Source: an uncultured Thermoplasmatales archaeon (GTDB lineage: Archaea > Thermoplasmatota > E2 > DHVEG-1). Taken from it: DNA of 28,103 nt. Of this stretch, positions 1-10,555 are shown piece by piece. Position numbers and translations under genes: made by a program. The notes beneath the pieces were generated by a model, which did not search any database, was not told the origin of the DNA, and saw only the letters and a list, made by a program, of their open reading frames with translations. Every line of letters starts with the position of its first letter. Within the stretch, counting starts at the first letter, position 1. The DNA is taken from positions 1-28,103 of the forward strand of contig CAZKUB010000100.1 in NCBI GenBank assembly GCA_964555835.1, read 5' to 3'.

Positions 1-1172
1 GCTATACCACCTGATTCATATTTTCGTCCGACCATAAATCCTGTAATGTTCTGTAAAAAGACAAGTGGTATTTTACGCTGACAGCACATTTCAATAAAAT
101 GAGTGCCCTTCAATGCTGATTCTGAAAACAAAACACCATTATTTGCAAGAATTCCAACAGGGTATCCCATAATCCTTGCAAAGCCACAGACAATAGTTGT
201 TCCATATAACGATTTGAACTCATGAAATTTAGATCCATCAACCACACGAGCGATAATTTCATGGACGTCAAATGGTCTTCTTGAATCCTTTGGAATAATT
301 CCATATATCTCTTTTATATCATATATAGGCTCTTCGGGTTTACAGACATCTAAATTAGTCTTTTCAGGTCGGTTCAAGTTTTCTACTATATTCCTAGTGA
401 TACCTATTGCTTCATGATCATCATGAGCATAATGGTCAGATACACCACTCTCACGACAATGAACATCTGCACCTCCAAGATCTTCAGCACTAACTTCTTC
501 ACCAGTTGCAGCTTTCACCAAGGGTGGACCACCAAGGAAAATAGTTCCATTTCCTTTAACAATAACAGTTTCATCACTCATCGCAGGGACATAAGCACCA
601 CCTGCAGTACAACTACCCATCACGGAAGCAATTTGAGGTATACCCATAGAACTCATTACAGCTTGGTTGTAAAAAATCCTGCCAAAATGTTCACGATCAG
701 GAAAAACCTCATCCTGCATCGGTAAAAAAGCACCGCCGCTATCAACCAGATAAATGCATGGAAGATTACTTTCCATAGCAATCTCCTGAGCACGTAAATG
801 TTTTTTTACGGTCATTGGATAATATGTTCCACCTGTAACAGTTGCATCATTTGCAACGATCACAACTTCTCGACCATGAACAACGCCAATACCTGTAACA
901 ATACCTGCGCATGGTGCTTTATCATTATAGAGCCCATGGCCAGCTAATGTATTAAACTCCATAAATGGGGTGTCTGGGTCGATTAAAGCATCGATACGCT
1001 CGCGTACAAGCATTTTGTTTCTTTCTTTATGAAGTTTTATTTTTTCAGCCCCTCCTCCCTCTTGAGCTTTTGCAATTTTGTCTTTTAAATCTTTTACAAG
1101 TAATTCATAACGTTTGAAATTTTCTTTATATTCCTTACTTGAGGCATCAATATTACTCTCAATTACATCCAT
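1..1172 (-). CDS. mccB: 3-methylcrotonyl-CoA carboxylase beta (carboxyltransferase) subunit, 3'-truncated by the window edge; absent from the ORF track
   Basis: Manual translation from ATG at 1172 (GGAGG upstream) is open to base 1: [11 protein letters not shown]...[26 protein letters not shown]...[31 protein letters not shown]...[18 protein letters not shown]...[19 protein letters not shown]. These are MccB/LiuB signature segments. Confidence 0.92.
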
Positions 1173-1187
1173 ATTTTTTCCTCCAAA

Positions 1188-1673
1188 TTAATTACCAATT
1201 TCCACGGTTTCTTCCCCGATTTCTATTTGATCATTTTCTTTGAAATTGATTTTTTTAACCTTGCCTTTAAAAGGAGCACGAATAAGATATTCCATTTTCA
1301 TAGCTTCAATTACCATTAGGACATCGCCTTTTTTTACTTTGGCTCCTTTTTTTACTTTGACGTTAACAACTTTTCCAGAGATAGGTGAGCTAAGGCTACC
1401 TTCTTCTTTAGTACGAGTTTTTTTAGTGGCAGTGAGTTCTACACGGCTTACCTTGTAAACATTTCCATCTACAAAAACAAATTTTTCATTATCTCCATGT
1501 GTTATTACTGCTTTTAAAATTCTATCTCCAATTTTGATTTTTAACTGACCTGGTTTTAACTCTTCAGCTTGGGCTTTGTATTCTGCGTTATCATAAGTTA
1601 TAAAAAAATGATTATCTCGTTTTTCAACAGTAACATTATACACATTATTTTCATGTTCATAATTTATAAACAT
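1188..1673 (-). CDS. Biotin carboxyl carrier subunit (partial BT domain + BCCP) of the acyl-CoA carboxylase, 161 aa
   Basis: EAMKM biotinylation motif and SPISGKV...V..GD biotinyl fold. ATG at 1673 has GGAGGT upstream, which is more likely than the TTG at 1700. Confidence 0.9.
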   Translation of the reverse strand: MFINYEHENNVYNVTVEKRDNHFFITYDNAEYKAQAEELKPGQLKIKIGDRILKAVITHGDNEKFVFVDGNVYKVSRVELTATKKTRTKEEGSLSSPISGKVVNVKVKKGAKVKKGDVLMVIEAMKMEYLIRAPFKGKVKKINFKENDQIEIGEETVEIGN

Positions 1674-1674
1674 A

Positions 1675-3183
1675 TTAGTTACCTCCTTTGCCACTAACAC
1701 GCCAGCGTCCTACATGTTTCCAAGGATTATGTGGATCTGCTTCTTTATAACGTACTATATCCTGGGATTTTTTATGCATTGAGTCAAATACAGCAAGAGC
1801 AATTATTGCATCAATCGGAAGAGTCTCTTTTGTAAGTATTCTATCTTTGAAATAATTATCAATAAAATGTGTGGTGATGTTTCCTTTTCTAAATTCAGTA
1901 TGCTTTAGTACTTTCTTTAAGAAACCTATGTTTGTAGTAACACCCAAAACCACGTATCTGGAAAGCACCCATATCATCTTGTTAATGTTTTCCTCTCTAT
2001 TTTCATCATAAGTAATAATCTTTGCAAGCATAGGATCATAATATGGAGTTACTTTCATACCCGATTGAACCCCGCTATCATCTCTGATATTTGGGCCATT
2101 TGGTACTTCTACTTTTTCAAGTGTTCCAATGCTTGGTAAAAAACCATTCCCCGGATCCTCTGCATAGATACGACACTCAATTGCATGTCCTCTCTGTGTT
2201 AAATTATCTTGCTTAAGTGTAAGTTTTTCACCACTAGCAATTTTTAACTGCCATTTTACAAGATCTACACCAGTTACCATCTCAGTTATAGGATGTTCTA
2301 CTTGAAGTCTTGTATTCATCTCCATAAAATAGAAATTTAGATCACCATCGATCATAAATTCAACTGTTCCCGCATTGGTGTAACCTGCAGCTTCTGCAGC
2401 AGTGACTGCTGCATCACCCATTTTTTTACGAAGAGTAGGGGTCATCACAGGAGAAGGAGTTTCTTCTATTATTTTTTGATGACGACGTTGAACACTGCAC
2501 TCTCTCTCAAAAAGATGAATTATGTTTCCATGTTCATCTCCAAGAATTTGAAATTCAATATGCCTTGGCTTGTCAATGTATTTTTCAAGAAATACAGTAT
2601 CATTACCAAATGCAGATTTAGATTCACGTTTAGCACTTTCAATTGCTTGACCAAGAGTATTTTGTGAGTGAACTATGCGCATACCTTTTCCACCGCCGCC
2701 TGCTGCGGCTTTTACAAGTAGTGGAAAACCAATTTTTTTACCTTCAACAATCAGTGATTTAATATCCTGTTTGACACCATGATATCCAGGAATTACAGGT
2801 ACACCTGCTTTTTCCATGGTTTTTTTAGCAGCAATTTTGTCACCCATGAGGCTAATTACTTTTGGCGAAGGTCCGATAAATTTGATCCCTGTATCATTAC
2901 ATGAATGAGCAAAATCAGGGTTTTCAGCAAGAAAACCATAACCAGGATGAATTGCTTCGGCACCAAAATCTTTAGCGATTTTAATTATCTTTGGAATATT
3001 AAGATAACTTTCAATAGGCGTTGGATCACCTAAGCATACACTTTCATCTGCAATTTGTACATGTGGAGCTTTTTTATCAACATCAGAATAGATTGCAATG
3101 GTTTTAATTCCTATTTCTTGACATGCTTTAATTATTCTTACAGCAATTTCCCCACGATTTGCAATTAGAACTTTTTTAAACAT
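1675..3183 (-). CDS. Biotin carboxylase subunit (MCC alpha-type, BC domain plus start of BT domain)
   Basis: KVLIANRGEIA, IHPGYGFLAEN, GGGGKGMR, ERECSVQRRHQKIIEE and EMNTRLQVEHP motifs. ATG at 3183 is preceded by GGAGTGA; GTG at 3195 is the alternative start. Confidence 0.93.
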   Translation of the reverse strand: MFKKVLIANRGEIAVRIIKACQEIGIKTIAIYSDVDKKAPHVQIADESVCLGDPTPIESYLNIPKIIKIAKDFGAEAIHPGYGFLAENPDFAHSCNDTGIKFIGPSPKVISLMGDKIAAKKTMEKAGVPVIPGYHGVKQDIKSLIVEGKKIGFPLLVKAAAGGGGKGMRIVHSQNTLGQAIESAKRESKSAFGNDTVFLEKYIDKPRHIEFQILGDEHGNIIHLFERECSVQRRHQKIIEETPSPVMTPTLRKKMGDAAVTAAEAAGYTNAGTVEFMIDGDLNFYFMEMNTRLQVEHPITEMVTGVDLVKWQLKIASGEKLTLKQDNLTQRGHAIECRIYAEDPGNGFLPSIGTLEKVEVPNGPNIRDDSGVQSGMKVTPYYDPMLAKIITYDENREENINKMIWVLSRYVVLGVTTNIGFLKKVLKHTEFRKGNITTHFIDNYFKDRILTKETLPIDAIIALAVFDSMHKKSQDIVRYKEADPHNPWKHVGRWRVSGKGGN

Positions 3184-3187
3184 ACGA

Positions 3188-3967
3188 TTATTCACTCCAT
3201 TTACTGTTTCTTTTCTGTAGAAATGCGTTTATTCCTTCTTGCCCCTCAGTAGATACTCTCAACTCAGAGATCTTTTCAACACTAAATTTTTTGTATTTTT
3301 CTACATCCATTTTTTCACAGGAGTCAACTAGTTTTTTAACTTCAACTATTGCTTTTGGCCCTGAACTGCGGATGATTTTGATGTATTTTTCTACAATTTT
3401 ATCTATTTCTTCTGATGCAACAAAGTCGACTAAACCAATGTCTTTTGCATAGTTTGATTCAAAACGCTCTCCTGTAATAAAAAGTCTTTTCATATCTGAA
3501 ATTTTTAAACGCCTTGAGATGTATTTTGAAATTACGGCAGGGATTATTCCAAGTTTTACTTCAGAAAAAGCAAATTTACAGCCGGGTACTGCAATTACAA
3601 TATCACATGCTGCAAAAAGACCTATTCCTCCTCCAAAGGCATGACCGTTTACCTTTGCAATAACTGGTTTTGAGCAGTTATAAATTGATTCATACAATTC
3701 AAGTAATAAATTACTATCTTTGATGTTTTCTTCTTTTGAATATGAAACCATGCTTTTCATCCAGTTAAGATCTGCCCCTGCACAAAAAGACTTACCCTGC
3801 CCTGTTAGTATGATTACTCTTATCTCTTTGTCCTTTTCAAGTTTTTTAAAATAATCTGTAAGTTCTTTCATAAGCTGCTCGTTCATAGCATTATGAACTT
3901 CAGGACGGTTTAAAAAAACTTTAGCAACATCTTTTTCCTTTGATACATTAATGGTATCGTATTTCAT
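3188..3967 (-). CDS. Enoyl-CoA hydratase family, probable 3-methylglutaconyl-CoA hydratase (LiuC-like)
   Basis: LNRPEVHNA, FCAGADLNWM, AFGGGIGL and FSEVKLGIIPAVI (one catalytic Glu). Immediately upstream of MCC genes. Confidence 0.8.
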   Translation of the reverse strand: MKYDTINVSKEKDVAKVFLNRPEVHNAMNEQLMKELTDYFKKLEKDKEIRVIILTGQGKSFCAGADLNWMKSMVSYSKEENIKDSNLLLELYESIYNCSKPVIAKVNGHAFGGGIGLFAACDIVIAVPGCKFAFSEVKLGIIPAVISKYISRRLKISDMKRLFITGERFESNYAKDIGLVDFVASEEIDKIVEKYIKIIRSSGPKAIVEVKKLVDSCEKMDVEKYKKFSVEKISELRVSTEGQEGINAFLQKRNSKWSE

Positions 3968-4061
3968 TTATTTCCTCCCTTTAACTTAAAAGGCATCTTT
4001 TGCCGATATTAGGTAAAATACATAAAGGTTTCTAAAGTTTTTATAGCAATTGCCGTAATAG

Positions 4062-4844
4062 TTATTCCCCTTTAAATACTGCTTTTCTTTTTTCAACAAA
4101 AGCAGCAACACCTTCTTTGAAATCTTTTGTCCCTGCGGCGTCTGCTGCGGTAAGACTTTCAAGTTCAAGATGCTCTTTCATATTATTATCCATACTTTTA
4201 TTGATAAGCATTTTTGCTTTACCTACCGCTATTGGTGGAAGTGTTCTAAATTTGTTTGCAAATTCTTCTACAGTATCTTCTAAATCTTTTTCTTCTACAG
4301 CCATGTTTATAAGTCCAAGTTCTTCTGCTTTATTAGCACTAAAAACTTTTGAAGTAAGTATATATTCACAAGCTTTTTGATAACCCACAATTTTTGTGAA
4401 AAACTGTGTGCCACAACCAGGGGCAAGTCCAATTCCGATAAAAGCAGTTCCAAATTTTGCGTTTTTAGAAGCAATTATAATATCACATGCAAGCGCAATA
4501 GAAAGCCCTGCTCCAAATGCATGGCCATTTACTGCTGCAATAACTGGTTTTTCCATGTTTCTCATTTCTAAAACGCATTTATGAATTGCAAGAGTTAGTT
4601 CTCTTAAAAACTTTGATTTGTCTTTTGCAAAATGCATTTCTTTAACATCGCCTCCACCACAGAATCCTTTCCCAGTTCCTCTGATAACAACTGCTTTTAT
4701 TTTTTTATCTACAGTAATTTTTTTTAATATATCATACAACTCCATTCCAAGCTTCATGTCAAAAGCGTTTAATCTCTCAGGTCTGTTGAGTGTAATATAT
4801 GCAATATTTTCCTTAACAGTATTTGTAAGTGTTTCATAACTCAT
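4062..4844 (-). CDS. Enoyl-CoA hydratase/isomerase (crotonase superfamily, PaaG-like subgroup)
   Basis: LNRPERLNA, FCGGGD, AVNGHAFGAG, IALACDI, FIGIGLAPGCG and DFKEGVAAFVEKRKAVFKG. Substrate not assignable. Confidence 0.85.
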   Translation of the reverse strand: MSYETLTNTVKENIAYITLNRPERLNAFDMKLGMELYDILKKITVDKKIKAVVIRGTGKGFCGGGDVKEMHFAKDKSKFLRELTLAIHKCVLEMRNMEKPVIAAVNGHAFGAGLSIALACDIIIASKNAKFGTAFIGIGLAPGCGTQFFTKIVGYQKACEYILTSKVFSANKAEELGLINMAVEEKDLEDTVEEFANKFRTLPPIAVGKAKMLINKSMDNNMKEHLELESLTAADAAGTKDFKEGVAAFVEKRKAVFKGE

Positions 4845-4875: not shown

Positions 4876-4884
4876 ATTTAAAAG
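4876..4884. promoter_or_regulatory. AT-rich TATA-like element in the divergent crotonase/symporter intergenic region
   Basis: Reads TTTAAAAG on + (4877-4884) and TTTTAAAT on - (4883-4876). It lies about 32 nt from the crotonase ATG and about 21 nt upstream of the putative operator. Confidence 0.45.
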
Positions 4885-4904
4885 TTAACCAAAATTATTA
4901 ATAA

Positions 4905-4938
4905 ATAGTCAACCATGCAGACGAGCTGGGTTAACAAT
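4905..4938. promoter_or_regulatory. Putative BirA operator (bioO-like inverted repeat)
   Basis: ATAGTCAACC-N14-GGTTAACAAT, with arms 8/10 complementary and AAC-to-GTT spacing of 16 nt. Resembles the TGTTAAC...GTTAACA BirA signal, overlaps the symporter ATG and precedes an HTH-bearing birA. Confidence 0.75.
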
Positions 4939-6280
4939 GGAATCTATGCTTACAATTGCTATTATACTAACATATCTATCAGTACTAATCACTATAGGTC
5001 TTATAAGCTCAAAAAAAATCAAAAACTCTAACAGTTTTTTCCTTGCGGATAGAAGCCTTAAAAAATTTGCATTAATTGCTACTATAACTGCAACAACTGT
5101 AGGTGGCTCTGCAACAATTGTTGCCGGTGGAAGAATTTATGCAGAAGGACTTCCCGCATTGTGGTACGATTTAGCAGGTGGTTTAGGTTTAATAGTTCTA
5201 GGTTTATTTATTGCAAAAAAAGTTAGAAAAACCAGACTTTTTACATTACCGGATATAACTGGTGCAATGTTTGATAAAAAAGTACGTTTTGCATCAGCTA
5301 TACTTATTGTTATAACTGAGATTGCTTGGGTTTCACTTCTTATTCAAGCATGTAGTCTTGTGCTTTCTGTCGCGGCTCCTGTTGATTATACAATATTACT
5401 TGTAGCAATTACTATTGGTTTTATTCTCTATACAATAATAGGCGGTCAGTATGCTGTTGTTTATACAGATATGATACAATTTTTTGTAATGCTTGTTGGT
5501 ATCTGTTTTATTGCAGCACCACTGCTTTTTATAGATGCCTTACCCGGAATTGGTGAACTACCGTCTGCCTCTCTTTCTTTTCCAGTTAATGCAAATATTG
5601 GAATTTTAGCTGCTTCATCTATTTTTTTCATGATGTTTCTACCTCATATTGTAGGGCCAGATATATATTCAAAAATTCTTTCTTCAAAAGATGAAAAAAC
5701 TGCAAAAACTGGAACCATTCTCTCAGGATTATTTAAATTAATTTTTGCAGCTGCAATAGCAATTATCGCAATTTCTGCAATGGTTCTTCATCCCGGTCTT
5801 GCAAATGCATATATTGCAATACCTACGGCCATGCTCAGTCTTTCACCAGTGCTAGGTGCAATTATACTTGCAGCTTTTGTATCTGTAATGCTTTCTTCTG
5901 CTGATTCATGTCTTCTTTCAGCAGGAACTATTATCAGTATCGATCTGCTGAAAAACAAAAATATAAATTTATCTAGACTGGGAATACTTGCTGTAGGCTT
6001 TGCAGCGTTAGGTCTTGCTTTGTATCTAGATGATGTTTTAAAGACTCTGCAACTTGCTTATACCATTTTTACAGCAGGACTTACCATACCAATCCTATTT
6101 GGTTTCTACAAAGAAAAAACACGTGTAAGTAAAAAGGGTGCGCTATGTGGACTAATATTTGGCGGGGGTGGATCACTTGTTTGGTTCTTTTTAAATAATC
6201 CTTATGGTATTGATGCTGTACTTATCGGAATGGCATTCTCCATTGCTCCGCTGTTGTTATTTAGAGAGGCTAAAAAATGA
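4937..6280 (+). CDS. Sodium:solute symporter (SSS/SLC5, PutP/PanF-like); candidate biotin importer
   Basis: About 13 hydrophobic segments, with SSS-type FFLADRSL, ATTVGGS, YTIIGGQYAVVYTDMIQF and AAFVSVMLSSADS (Na-site-like Ser pair). Stop overlaps the birA start (ATGA). Confidence 0.85.
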   Translation: MESMLTIAIILTYLSVLITIGLISSKKIKNSNSFFLADRSLKKFALIATITATTVGGSATIVAGGRIYAEGLPALWYDLAGGLGLIVLGLFIAKKVRKTRLFTLPDITGAMFDKKVRFASAILIVITEIAWVSLLIQACSLVLSVAAPVDYTILLVAITIGFILYTIIGGQYAVVYTDMIQFFVMLVGICFIAAPLLFIDALPGIGELPSASLSFPVNANIGILAASSIFFMMFLPHIVGPDIYSKILSSKDEKTAKTGTILSGLFKLIFAAAIAIIAISAMVLHPGLANAYIAIPTAMLSLSPVLGAIILAAFVSVMLSSADSCLLSAGTIISIDLLKNKNINLSRLGILAVGFAALGLALYLDDVLKTLQLAYTIFTAGLTIPILFGFYKEKTRVSKKGALCGLIFGGGGSLVWFFLNNPYGIDAVLIGMAFSIAPLLLFREAKK

Positions 6281-7227
6281 ATGAAAAAATCTTGGAGTTT
6301 TTAAAAGAAGACAAATTTGTATCAGGCGAACTTTTAGCTAAAAAACTTGGTATTTCAAGGACTGCGATCTGGAAACAGATCAAAACTTTAAAAGACGTAG
6401 GATACGAAATTGAATCTGTCAAAAACAAAGGATATAGAATTATTTCAAAACCAGATGTTTTGCTGCCTGGTGAAATTAAATCAGGTATTAAAACAAAAAT
6501 TATTGGTAAAAAAATAATCTATTTTAAAAAACTTACATCTACAAATTCCTTCTGTAAAACTCTTGTAAAAAAAGATATAGATGAAGGTACTGTTGTTGTT
6601 GTAGATATACAAGAACAAGGAAAGGGCAGGAAGAACAGAAATTGGTCTTCACCTGAGGGGGGCATTTGGTTTTCAGTTATATTATACCCTCAGATTCCTC
6701 CCCAGAATGCTATGATAGTTACAATGGCGGCTTCTGTTTCAATAGTTGAAGCAATTAAAAAATTTACAGGGCTGAATCCTCTGATTAAATGGCCTAATGA
6801 TGTTTTGATAAATGGTAAAAAAGTCTGCGGTATTTTAACGGAACTTGATGCTGAGGTAGATGAAATAAACCATGTAATTGTAGGCATAGGAATTAATGTT
6901 AATAACCCCTTAGATAAAGATTTACAAAATATTGCTACCTCTTTAAAAATTGAGTCAAACCATGATGTTTCTAGAGTTGAGCTTTTTAAAAATATACTTA
7001 ATAGTTTTGATAAAAATTATGATTATGTTAAATCATTAGATTACAAGAAAATTAGAGATTTATGGTTTTCAAATACAGATATAATTGGTAAAAAAGTTAA
7101 GGTTAATCATGAAAAAGATGTTATTTTTGGTATTGTTTCTGATATTGATGAAAGCGGCTGTCTCATTGTAAATACTTCAAATGGTTTTGAAAAGATTGTT
7201 GCAGGAGATGTAACATTTATATTGTGA
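6277..7227 (+). CDS. birA: Bifunctional biotin-protein ligase / biotin operon repressor (group II)
   Basis: N-terminal wHTH (SGELLAKKLGISRTAIWKQIKTL), Q..GKGR..RNW biotin loop, KWPND, KVCGIL and a C-terminal SH3-like domain. Confidence 0.95.
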   Translation: MNEKILEFLKEDKFVSGELLAKKLGISRTAIWKQIKTLKDVGYEIESVKNKGYRIISKPDVLLPGEIKSGIKTKIIGKKIIYFKKLTSTNSFCKTLVKKDIDEGTVVVVDIQEQGKGRKNRNWSSPEGGIWFSVILYPQIPPQNAMIVTMAASVSIVEAIKKFTGLNPLIKWPNDVLINGKKVCGILTELDAEVDEINHVIVGIGINVNNPLDKDLQNIATSLKIESNHDVSRVELFKNILNSFDKNYDYVKSLDYKKIRDLWFSNTDIIGKKVKVNHEKDVIFGIVSDIDESGCLIVNTSNGFEKIVAGDVTFIL

Positions 7228-7435
7228 TATATCAAGTTAAGCTACCCTGATGATTTTTAATCAAACAATACTTTTTTTGTCTTTTGAAATTTGTTATAAA
7301 TATTTCCTTCTCGTTTAGTTTTTTTATCTATACTAACTCATTTACTTTTTTTTCCAGAAAAAAGTAATTTCGGGATAACACATTCTTTTTTTCTTTGGAA
7401 ACTGTAATATCACATGTTTCTATTTGGGTTTTTTA

Positions 7436-8686
7436 ATGTCTAACTACAAACTTTCAAATATTGTAGAAGAAGAACTCTGCGGTCTTTCACCGATTCAGAC
7501 TATTATGAAAATGGCTGAAAAACGTAACATTATTAGAATGGGTTTAAATCCTGAGGAGGTCATCTCTTTTGGTGGAGGCTGGTGTAATCACAAAGCACCT
7601 GAAGAATTAAGAAATATTTATAAAAAAATAGTCGAAGATGAAAAATTATTTCATAAAACTGGGCGTTATAGCGAAATTCTTGGAGAGTATAATTGTCGTG
7701 AGCAGATCTGCCATTTTGAAAAAGAAATATACAATATGCCACTTTTAAATGCTGAAAATATTATTCTTGGGCAATCATCTACTCAGTTGTTCCATGATCT
7801 GATGAGGGTTTTATGTAACTCTTCAGATAGCATTGGTTTTTTAGATCCAACTTATGCAAATTATTTCAATGCTGTAAAATCTGCAGTTCCGGGATCAAAT
7901 ATGGTTTTTATTCCCGGGCTTGAAACAACTAATTGGAATTATTTACCAAATCCTGATGATACTTTAGAAATTCTAAAAAACTATTGTGAGCAAGGCTTAA
8001 AAACATTGGTGATACCCATCCCAGATAATCCTACCAGTCAGATAGCTCATGATGATTTTCTAAAATCTTGTCTTGAAATACTTACAGACTATAACTCTTT
8101 TTTAGTATTTGATTGTGCATACAAAGCATTATGGTTTAAAGACATGCCTAATTGTTTTTCATGGTCGCCTGAAAAATATCCAAATTTAGTTTTGCTAAAC
8201 TCTAATTCTAAATGGCTTTCTAGCCTTGGCCGCAGACTTGGATGGATAGAAGCTGATAAAAAAATAATACAAGGACTTGAGAAGTTAAATGAATCTGTTC
8301 TTTTGTCACCAGATACTATGCATAGTATGGCTACCGCAAAGTTTCTTGAAAAAAGTCTTTCAGATAAAAGTCTTAAAACTTTTATTGATGAAACACGAAC
8401 GCTATATGAAAAAACAGCGGATACTATGATTAAAAATATAGATGAATACCTTGGCTGGAGTCGACTTGATCCTATGGGTGGTCTTTATACTGTTTGTCCT
8501 ACACCCTCCGAGGAGGAACCTATGTCTTTTGTTCAACGTGTTTTAAAAAATACAGGAGTTTTATTTATCCCGGGATCCGGTTTTGGGCCAAGTATGCAAA
8601 AAGCAGTTCGTCTTTCTTATGGTCCCCTTTGTTACGATCATGATTTAATTCAGCAAGGTTTTGAAAGAATTCAAGATTATATCTAA
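7436..8686 (+). CDS. PLP-dependent aminotransferase, class I/II fold
   Basis: PDNPT, DCAY (PLP Asp), SNSKW (Schiff-base Lys), GRRLGW, FIPGSGFG and VRLSY. ATG at 7436 preferred over TTG at 7424. Confidence 0.88.
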   Translation: MSNYKLSNIVEEELCGLSPIQTIMKMAEKRNIIRMGLNPEEVISFGGGWCNHKAPEELRNIYKKIVEDEKLFHKTGRYSEILGEYNCREQICHFEKEIYNMPLLNAENIILGQSSTQLFHDLMRVLCNSSDSIGFLDPTYANYFNAVKSAVPGSNMVFIPGLETTNWNYLPNPDDTLEILKNYCEQGLKTLVIPIPDNPTSQIAHDDFLKSCLEILTDYNSFLVFDCAYKALWFKDMPNCFSWSPEKYPNLVLLNSNSKWLSSLGRRLGWIEADKKIIQGLEKLNESVLLSPDTMHSMATAKFLEKSLSDKSLKTFIDETRTLYEKTADTMIKNIDEYLGWSRLDPMGGLYTVCPTPSEEEPMSFVQRVLKNTGVLFIPGSGFGPSMQKAVRLSYGPLCYDHDLIQQGFERIQDYI

Positions 8687-9259: not shown

Positions 9260-10555
9260 TTATTGGGAAGGATCATCAACACTTCCCATAAATAGTATCG
9301 TTCCCGTTTCTCTATGATTTATTGTAAATAAGAATGGACGATTGCAATCAAAGGTGATTCTTGTTGGTGTCGTTGGTCCATTTACAGATGTTAATTCCAT
9401 TATTACTGCAGTGGCTGCTGCAGCTTCAGTTCCTTCTTCATTTACTTCCACAAATGCTTTATGTAAAACATTTGAAATAAATAAATCTCTAGCACCAGTT
9501 ATTCCTGAGAAATCAGCCTCTAACGAATTAAACGCATCAATCATCCCAAGCTCGATTAAATAATCAACAAGACCATAAGAAGTCTCAAACTTGAATTTTG
9601 GAAGATATACATCTGCTTCTACTTCGTTCATTTGCTCGATCCAATACTTATATTTCTCTCTGTTGGCTGAACTAATTATATCTGATAATTCTACTCCCGC
9701 CTTGGGAAGAAGAATAATCATGGATATATCATCTCCTGAGTAAAGCATCTCAAGGATCTGCAGATCATCGGTCTCAGTATAATTGAATTTTACATCTTTG
9801 TCTATTAATTTCATCATATCTACCTGTATATTTTCTCCAGATAAAAGGGTAAAATTTCTTTTAGTTGTATTTTGTTCTTCAAACTGAATCTTCCATGTTC
9901 CTTTGAAATAAATCGCATTTGTTAAAATCATTCTAGTAAAATCAGGATCAATGGCATCTGCGGGGACTAAATCTTTTATTAGATTATTTGTCTGATTTTC
10001 CACCCAGCTGTTTATAATTCCTGCAGCTTTTTCAGGATTTGCATATTCAACCTCTGATACATTCCCCCCATAATACGTTTTAATTATGTCTACAAAACTG
10101 TCTAAAAGGTTAAATCCAACATCAGGCCATAATGCGTTTGCTGTTGATAGGTTATACTCGTCATTAAAGTTCAGATGAGTGTAAAGATTATATACGTATT
10201 CATGAAATGATTCATTGTCTTGTTTTATATGCAAAACATTCCCCATTTCAACTGCAGTGTTTTCTCTAGCACCTTCATAGGTCATAGCAAGTGCAGTAAA
10301 TACTGAATACGGAGAGTAAAATATGTTTGGACTATTAGCTTTATCTTCGGATAATTTTTTGAAGAAATCAAAACAAAACTGGTTTATTGCATCTTCAAAT
10401 GAAGTTATATTTCCTACAGGAGGTAGCTCTTTATCCTCTTTTTGTTTCTCATCATCTATGGGCTTTGTAGAATCAAAATCTGCTACTAAAACAAAGCCTA
10501 ATGTTCCTAAGATCATCAAGCATATAATAGTTGCAATAATTGGTTTTTTATTCAT
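9260..10555 (-). CDS. Serpin (serine protease inhibitor) with N-terminal signal/anchor
   Basis: NIFYSPYS, NAIYFKGTWK, LPKFKFE, VLHKAFVEVNEEGTEAAAAT hinge and NRPFLF...LFMGSV. Basic-then-hydrophobic N-terminus. GGTGAT RBS. Confidence 0.95.
   Translation of the reverse strand: MNKKPIIATIICLMILGTLGFVLVADFDSTKPIDDEKQKEDKELPPVGNITSFEDAINQFCFDFFKKLSEDKANSPNIFYSPYSVFTALAMTYEGARENTAVEMGNVLHIKQDNESFHEYVYNLYTHLNFNDEYNLSTANALWPDVGFNLLDSFVDIIKTYYGGNVSEVEYANPEKAAGIINSWVENQTNNLIKDLVPADAIDPDFTRMILTNAIYFKGTWKIQFEEQNTTKRNFTLLSGENIQVDMMKLIDKDVKFNYTETDDLQILEMLYSGDDISMIILLPKAGVELSDIISSANREKYKYWIEQMNEVEADVYLPKFKFETSYGLVDYLIELGMIDAFNSLEADFSGITGARDLFISNVLHKAFVEVNEEGTEAAAATAVIMELTSVNGPTTPTRITFDCNRPFLFTINHRETGTILFMGSVDDPSQ

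Follow-up and report, generated by a model that had tools for sequence, protein, structure and literature searches.

The stretch of DNA analysed here, hereafter the window, comprises 28,103 nucleotides (contig CAZKUB010000100.1 of assembly GCA_964555835.1) from an uncultured Thermoplasmatales archaeon, whose source genome is a metagenome-assembled genome (MAG) of 1.46 Mb in 324 contigs, 86.6% complete and with 33% G+C. Our subject is a two-gene unit made up of a gene for a permease of the sodium:solute symporter (SSS) family, here a predicted biotin importer, and of birA; the unit is headed by a predicted BirA operator and faces a divergent operon for a biotin-dependent enzyme (Table 1). The stop codon of the SSS gene and the start codon of birA overlap as ATGA, an arrangement that had been described in an initial annotation made from the letters alone and that the open reading frames bear out. 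The helix-turn-helix (HTH) that this annotation had assigned to BirA is recognized by Pfam as HTH_11 (67 bits, residues 3-54), together with BPL_LplA_LipB (80 bits) and BPL_C (35 bits), and with a score of 215 bits against NCBIfam model TIGR00121 (cut-off 83) the protein is, by domain content, a complete BirA of the group II (bifunctional) type. Its translation contains the glycine-rich, biotin-binding loop as GKGRKNRNW and the catalytic lysine motif as KWPND, which we take to be the counterparts of E. coli GRGRRGR and K183. The divergent genes, also announced at the outset as a biotin-dependent carboxylase operon, were identified as such by comparison with Pfam and NCBIfam; as a set they resemble methylcrotonyl-CoA carboxylase, and the biotin carboxyl carrier protein (BCCP) among them is the sole clear biotinyl domain detected in the host genome.

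Table 1. Coordinates of the predicted importer unit, its promoter elements and the divergent operon (positions in the window)
Feature	Position	Strand	Basis or remark
SSS-family permease, predicted biotin importer	4937-6280	+	447 aa; Pfam SSF
Group II BirA, N-terminal winged HTH and biotin-protein ligase	6277-7227	+	316 aa; Pfam, TIGR00121
TATA-like box TTAATAAA of the SSS-birA promoter	4898-4905	+	consensus TTATAAA 5' of the left half-site, 24 loci aligned
Predicted BirA operator, dyad with 14-nt spacer	4907-4936	.	half-site conservation
Left operator half-site AGTCAACC	4907-4914	+	family consensus AGTTAACY, one mismatch here
Right operator half-site GGTTAACA, abuts ATG	4929-4936	+	most conserved stretch upstream
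Extra GTTAACC near TATA-like element of the divergent crotonase promoter	4884-4890	.	perfect 7-nt complement of 4929-4935
Divergent operon, biotin-dependent client enzyme	3-4844	-	Pfam and NCBIfam
Crotonase (divergent operon)	4062-4844	-	
Methylglutaconyl-CoA-hydratase-like crotonase (divergent operon)	3188-3967	-	
Biotin carboxylase (divergent operon)	1675-3195	-	
BCCP (divergent operon)	1188-1700	-	
Carboxyltransferase (divergent operon)	3-1172	-	continues past the window edge

Ahead of the SSS gene, the inverted repeat that had been placed over the likely transcription start and the ATG was found again, with arms ATAGTCAACC (4905-4914) and GGTTAACAAT (4929-4938) complementary at 8/10 positions, and the promoter as a whole reads TTAATAAA-T-AGTCAACC-N14-GGTTAACA-ATG. 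A dyad of the form GTYAACC-N14-GGTTAAC occurs once in the window and in none of 100 shuffles, and AGTCAACC-N14-GGTTAACA conforms to the bioO-type operator pattern (TGTWAACC-N14/15-GGTTWACA overlapping the promoter). The archaeal dyad equals in half-site and spacing the bioY site of S. suis, TGTTAACC-N14-GGATAACA, which covers the transcription start and is shifted by BirA in electrophoretic mobility shift assays (PMC4877710). When the host genome was scanned for GTTAACC-N13-16-GGTTAAC with up to two mismatches allowed, the operator described here was the only good intergenic copy; the eight other matches were discarded as BirA sites, being intragenic or beside an aldehyde dehydrogenase or TrkA gene, and none of them looks biotin-related. 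The location of TTAATAAA, some 25-30 nt ahead of the expected transcription start, suggests that it serves as a TATA box. Given a TATA centre near 4901, transcription would be expected to start at about 4926-4929, in which case the dyad would cover the start, and the SSS-birA mRNA would be almost leaderless.

Linkage to birA and the operator are both conserved. In a survey in which species-representative genomes were scanned for orthologs and 63 loci were returned, about 39 loci were archaeal orthologs (54-83% identity), and 30 of these have a full-length birA directly downstream of the SSS gene. The aligned upstream regions gave the consensus TTATAAA-nAGTTAACy-N14-GGTTAACA-ATG, whose half-sites are rich in information and whose spacer carries almost none. 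The dyad is present at all 29 archaeal loci for which an HTH-birA lies downstream and upstream sequence is available (one with an N12 spacer, a few with N13 or N15), as against none of the seven archaeal loci that lack a downstream birA. The initial annotation had proposed to look among orthologs for conserved linkage to birA and for the operator motif, and both comparisons come out in its favor, the former with the addition of three bacterial loci considered below. In five of the seven operator-less genomes the sole BirA is a protein of 263-288 aa that has no HTH and is encoded elsewhere. Operator presence thus tracks the HTH of BirA across loci, and the same pattern is seen in other families, when genomes G284 and G277 are compared with the operator-less G143 and G131, in which the BirA matches begin only at residue 76-83. 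Rodionov et al. reportedly judged BirA regulons in 2002 by this very measure, namely whether the presence of sites follows that of the DNA-binding domain.

Some further observations were made at these loci. At L076 and L080 (genomes G118 and G121), the HTH-less birA directly adjoins a second biotin carboxylase of about 466 aa and not a transporter. The additional GTTAACC motif on the side of the divergent crotonase promoter was considered as a site through which BirA might control the divergent operon and rejected, given that it is retained at L023 and L029, in genomes with HTH-less BirA only, is missing at L012-L015 and is lost in some genomes in which BirA has the HTH; a promoter element or the site of another factor is a likelier identity for it than a BirA half-site. 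A contig of 1815 bases binned as 'Candidatus Cloacimonadota bacterium' (L009, JAYEKK010000279.1) carries the archaeal operator, the SSS gene and the start of birA. Its SSS gene is 82% identical to that of the window and is the row nearest to it on the tree, and the contig is probably a mis-binned archaeal one.

Close SSS orthologs are nearly confined to one family among the 401 genomes sampled across the phylum, and more distant homologs, at 31-41% identity, are found in other families. At L096 and L101, which come from two other archaeal families and encode proteins of 31-37% identity, the motif TGTAAACC-N13/14-GTTKACA lies immediately ahead of an SSS gene that has no birA in its vicinity, and both genomes encode a full-length BirA; BioY was not found in any of five further SSS-bearing genomes from other families. 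Among bacterial homologs, birA lies directly upstream of the SSS gene in three cases (L049, L053 and L060). Two of these, which belong to the bacterial sister clade, show a dyad ahead of the birA-SSS pair, with the sequence TGTTAACC-N13-GGTTGACA in a member of the Dehalococcoidia (L053) and TGTAAACT-N14-GGTTGACA in a Desulfovibrio MAG (L060). One locus of a different kind is L102 (genome G207, family f41), where an operator-SSS-birA unit stands divergent from a crotonase gene and the SSS protein is about 58-60% identical to that of the window, which reflects either an inter-family transfer or a problem of placement or binning.

The biotin economy of the order was surveyed in 118 species genomes, 43 of them at least 90% complete. 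None of the 118 yielded a bioB match over the cut-off, and archaeal control genomes did give BioB matches. Because bioB is missing from all of them, the whole order looks biotin-auxotrophic. The initial annotation had noted that the window holds no biotin synthesis or bioY gene, had supposed a probable auxotroph and had asked whether bioY and bioB are absent from the genome; in the window's own genome bioY, bioB, bioD and bioA are indeed all without a match over the cut-off, which extends the observation genome-wide. An SSS ortholog is present in 43 of the 118 genomes and BioY in 52, both in none and neither in 23, and the BioY domain (PF02632) is matched in none of the 43 genomes with the SSS ortholog. 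The two transporters alternate even inside genera, with one BioY genome and four SSS genomes in g9, and two BioY genomes and one SSS genome in g38. The exchange can be followed at the locus itself: among 14 BioY loci retrieved for comparison of neighborhoods, a full-length birA comes directly after bioY in six, of which four adjoin the same crotonase or carboxylase genes as in the window, and a TATA box and dyad are arranged in the same way ahead of bioY in five of the six, while a sixth such dyad precedes a bioY without an adjacent birA. One regulatory slot is therefore occupied by bioY in some genomes and by the SSS gene in others, and the two kinds of locus have a common promoter with differing translation initiation signals. 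At the bioY loci L082, L084, L089 and L094 a leader that contains GAGG comes after the right half-site, and at the SSS loci the half-site runs straight into the ATG, in a leaderless-like arrangement.

These results bear on the possibility that the symporter imports a precursor or vitamer (dethiobiotin, 7-keto-8-aminopelargonic acid (KAPA) or 7,8-diaminopelargonic acid (DAPA)) rather than biotin. Gene context varies within the bacterial sister clade, which would leave room for substrates of this sort. However, dethiobiotin and earlier precursors would be useless in this order because no genome in it has bioB, the control genomes showing that the gene is detectable in archaea; the window's own genome, without bioD or bioA, could not convert a precursor, and the gene is swapped one for one with bioY, which encodes a biotin carrier. 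We have rejected precursor import for this lineage because none of the 118 genomes yielded bioB, and regard it as hardly credible. The selected substrate should be biotin itself.

With respect to family, the permease matches Pfam SSF (PF00474) with 96 bits over residues 34-409 (gathering score 22.8), which places it in the SSS family (TC 2.A.21), and its 112 bits against the superfamily model TIGR00813 lie under the cut-off of 184, which makes it a divergent member. Scores against the PutP and PanF models of NCBIfam are far lower than these models demand (TIGR02121, 84.6 bits vs a cut-off of 515.5; TIGR02119, 64.3 bits vs 328), and neither equivalog name applies. An AlphaFold2 model (pLDDT 81, pTM 0.84) has a LeuT-type fold with about 12-13 transmembrane helices and superposes on PutP, PanF and ActP with TM-scores of 0.85-0.88, among them 0.86 to PutP and PanF, at 16-22% identity, and on the solved structures of CHT1, SGLT and vSGLT with TM-scores of 0.72-0.81; NIS and SiaT were matched too, and the best PDB sequence matches are CHT1-type proteins. 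The protein belongs to an SSS clade of its own, at roughly equal distances from PutP, PanF, ActP and CHT1. The clade has two invariant serines, S320 and S321, that line up with vSGLT S364 and S365, which are presumably the serines of the Na2 site; the alignment fits Na+ coupling and is no proof of it.

The initial annotation had called the protein SMVT-like. This holds at the level of the SSS superfamily and not as a statement of specific kinship, which finds no support in either sequence or fold, neither being closer to SMVT than to PutP, PanF, ActP or CHT1: SMVT is not among the PDB sequence matches (E at most 0.001), nor among the top 30 Swiss-Prot fold matches. The same finding speaks to the idea of a broad carrier that, in the manner of animal SMVT, would take pantothenate and/or lipoate along with biotin and not be dedicated to the latter. 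A precedent within the SSS superfamily exists in SMVT, which carries biotin, pantothenate and lipoate (PMC4049904), and our data are compatible with extra substrates; yet with no specific relationship to SMVT, and with control by BirA only and a one-for-one exchange with BioY, both of which single out biotin as the selected substrate, we consider a multivitamin carrier to be highly unlikely.

A more serious contender, though still an unlikely one, is that the operator serves only the autoregulation of birA, and that the symporter is carried along as a passenger, its substrate (for example a branched-chain amino or keto acid, a monocarboxylate, proline or pantothenate) having nothing to do with biotin and feeding the neighboring leucine-type catabolic operon. 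The SSS gene does adjoin an operon of the methylcrotonyl-CoA carboxylase type, its closest named families are PutP, PanF and ActP, and at L023 and L029 it remains beside the carboxylase operon without birA or operator. Against this, the identical position is taken by bioY in sister genomes, SSS and BioY never meet in the 118 auxotrophic genomes, operators precede SSS homologs with no adjacent birA at L096 and L101, birA-SSS operons exist in Dehalococcoidia and Desulfovibrio, and the PutP and PanF scores fall so far short of the NCBIfam cut-offs.

Several mutually independent genomic arguments support the reading of the unit as one for biotin uptake, and we think it very likely that the SSS protein takes up biotin itself as a secondary carrier, probably coupled to Na+, and that its gene is transcribed together with birA, whose bifunctional group II product would repress both genes. 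When biotin is plentiful and the BCCP fully biotinylated, BirA carrying biotinyl-5'-AMP would dimerise on AGTCAACC-N14-GGTTAACA; the bound holo-BirA would span the region from just past the TATA-like box to the start codon and block recruitment of RNA polymerase, and importer and birA would both be switched off. When biotin is scarce, the adenylate would be consumed by the apo-BCCP of the neighboring acyl-CoA carboxylase, upon which the operator would clear and the importer be made. More broadly, the SSS clade is likely to be a third family of high-affinity biotin importers in prokaryotes, one that displaced bioY in situ in one family of sediment Thermoplasmatota and is wired to BirA also beyond it, in further archaeal families as well as in Dehalococcoidia and Desulfovibrio.

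Several points weigh against this interpretation. Substrates may differ across the wider clade, given that 17 of the 20 sampled bacterial homologs have no birA within 4 kb. A Fisher test on the mutual exclusion of SSS and BioY gave p 1e-15, a value that overstates the case owing to kinship among the genomes, and 23 of the 118 genomes carry neither transporter, although, these being MAGs, absences are soft. The left half-site of the window departs from the family consensus (C for T), and to our knowledge BirA repression has never been demonstrated in an archaeon.

Two further genes of the window lie beyond the unit. A class I/II aminotransferase gene (7424-8686, +) begins 197 bp past birA; in comparison with NCBIfam it was not BioF-like, and its best match was a GntC-type cyclodehydratase model, far under the cut-off. 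A full-length serpin, here in an archaeon, is encoded at 9260-10555 (-) (Pfam Serpin, 387 bits, no NCBIfam match).

The sequencing runs in which the locus was detected are all DNA metagenomes, from aquatic and freshwater-sediment sources. The established prokaryotic biotin importers are BioY and YigM only (PMC4049904, PMC6593275), and genomes without either are scored as having no biotin uptake in models of auxotrophy and cross-feeding. If our interpretation is true, a third importer family would fill this uptake gap for widespread sediment archaea and some Chloroflexota, and hundreds of proteins that databases currently label generically as 'sodium:solute symporter family protein' would gain a functional name. 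The initial annotation was not aware of such a system in archaea, and we likewise found no description of an SSS-type biotin importer from a prokaryote in the literature searched, where reviews and regulon tables name BioY and YigM alone, RegPrecise, SEED and TCDB lying outside the scope of that search. The locus also amounts to a clean natural experiment in non-orthologous displacement, in which operator, partner gene and neighbors are constant and bioY or the SSS gene is swapped, and its simple archaeal promoter, with the operator between TATA box and ATG, would be suited to a first test of archaeal BirA repression.

BirA-controlled biotin uptake as such is already known, and what would be new here is a transporter family not previously given this role in prokaryotes. 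BirA-regulated bioY units were reportedly predicted for archaea by Rodionov et al. in 2002, and sister genomes of the window's archaeon do have a bioY-birA unit at the same locus. As in the bioY and bioY-birA units of S. suis, L. lactis and B. subtilis, the importer of an auxotroph, here a predicted one, stands under a dyad of the TGTTAACC-N14-GGTTAACA type over the transcription start, which is bound by an HTH-BirA in those systems (PMC4877710) and is predicted to be so here. Unlike BioY, which is a small S-component and unrelated, the window's protein is a secondary carrier of about 13 helices with an SSS/LeuT fold, and its start codon follows the operator directly, with no counterpart to the leader kept at the bioY loci. 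YigM is a protein of the EamA/DMT type with ten transmembrane segments, found in prototrophs, in contrast to the SSS-fold carrier of auxotrophs described here. As a secondary (non-ABC) biotin importer within a BirA regulon, E. coli YigM (BioP) is nevertheless a precedent (Leyn 2016 supplement), and yigM is the only transporter in the BirA regulon table of that source. PanF and PutP are the best structural matches and have conserved motifs of transmembrane helices 1 and 8 in common with the window's protein, including the putative Na2 serines, but the genomic and regulatory context of the window's gene is that of biotin and not of pantothenate or proline. SMVT (SLC5A6), finally, belongs to the same SSS superfamily (PF00474) and carries biotin in a Na+-coupled manner (PMC4049904), whereas the window's protein is shorter, has no specific relationship to it and is about 20% identical to PutP, PanF, ActP and CHT1 alike. 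The predicted archaeal importer thus looks like an independent, convergent recruitment of the SSS fold that animal SMVT also uses for biotin.

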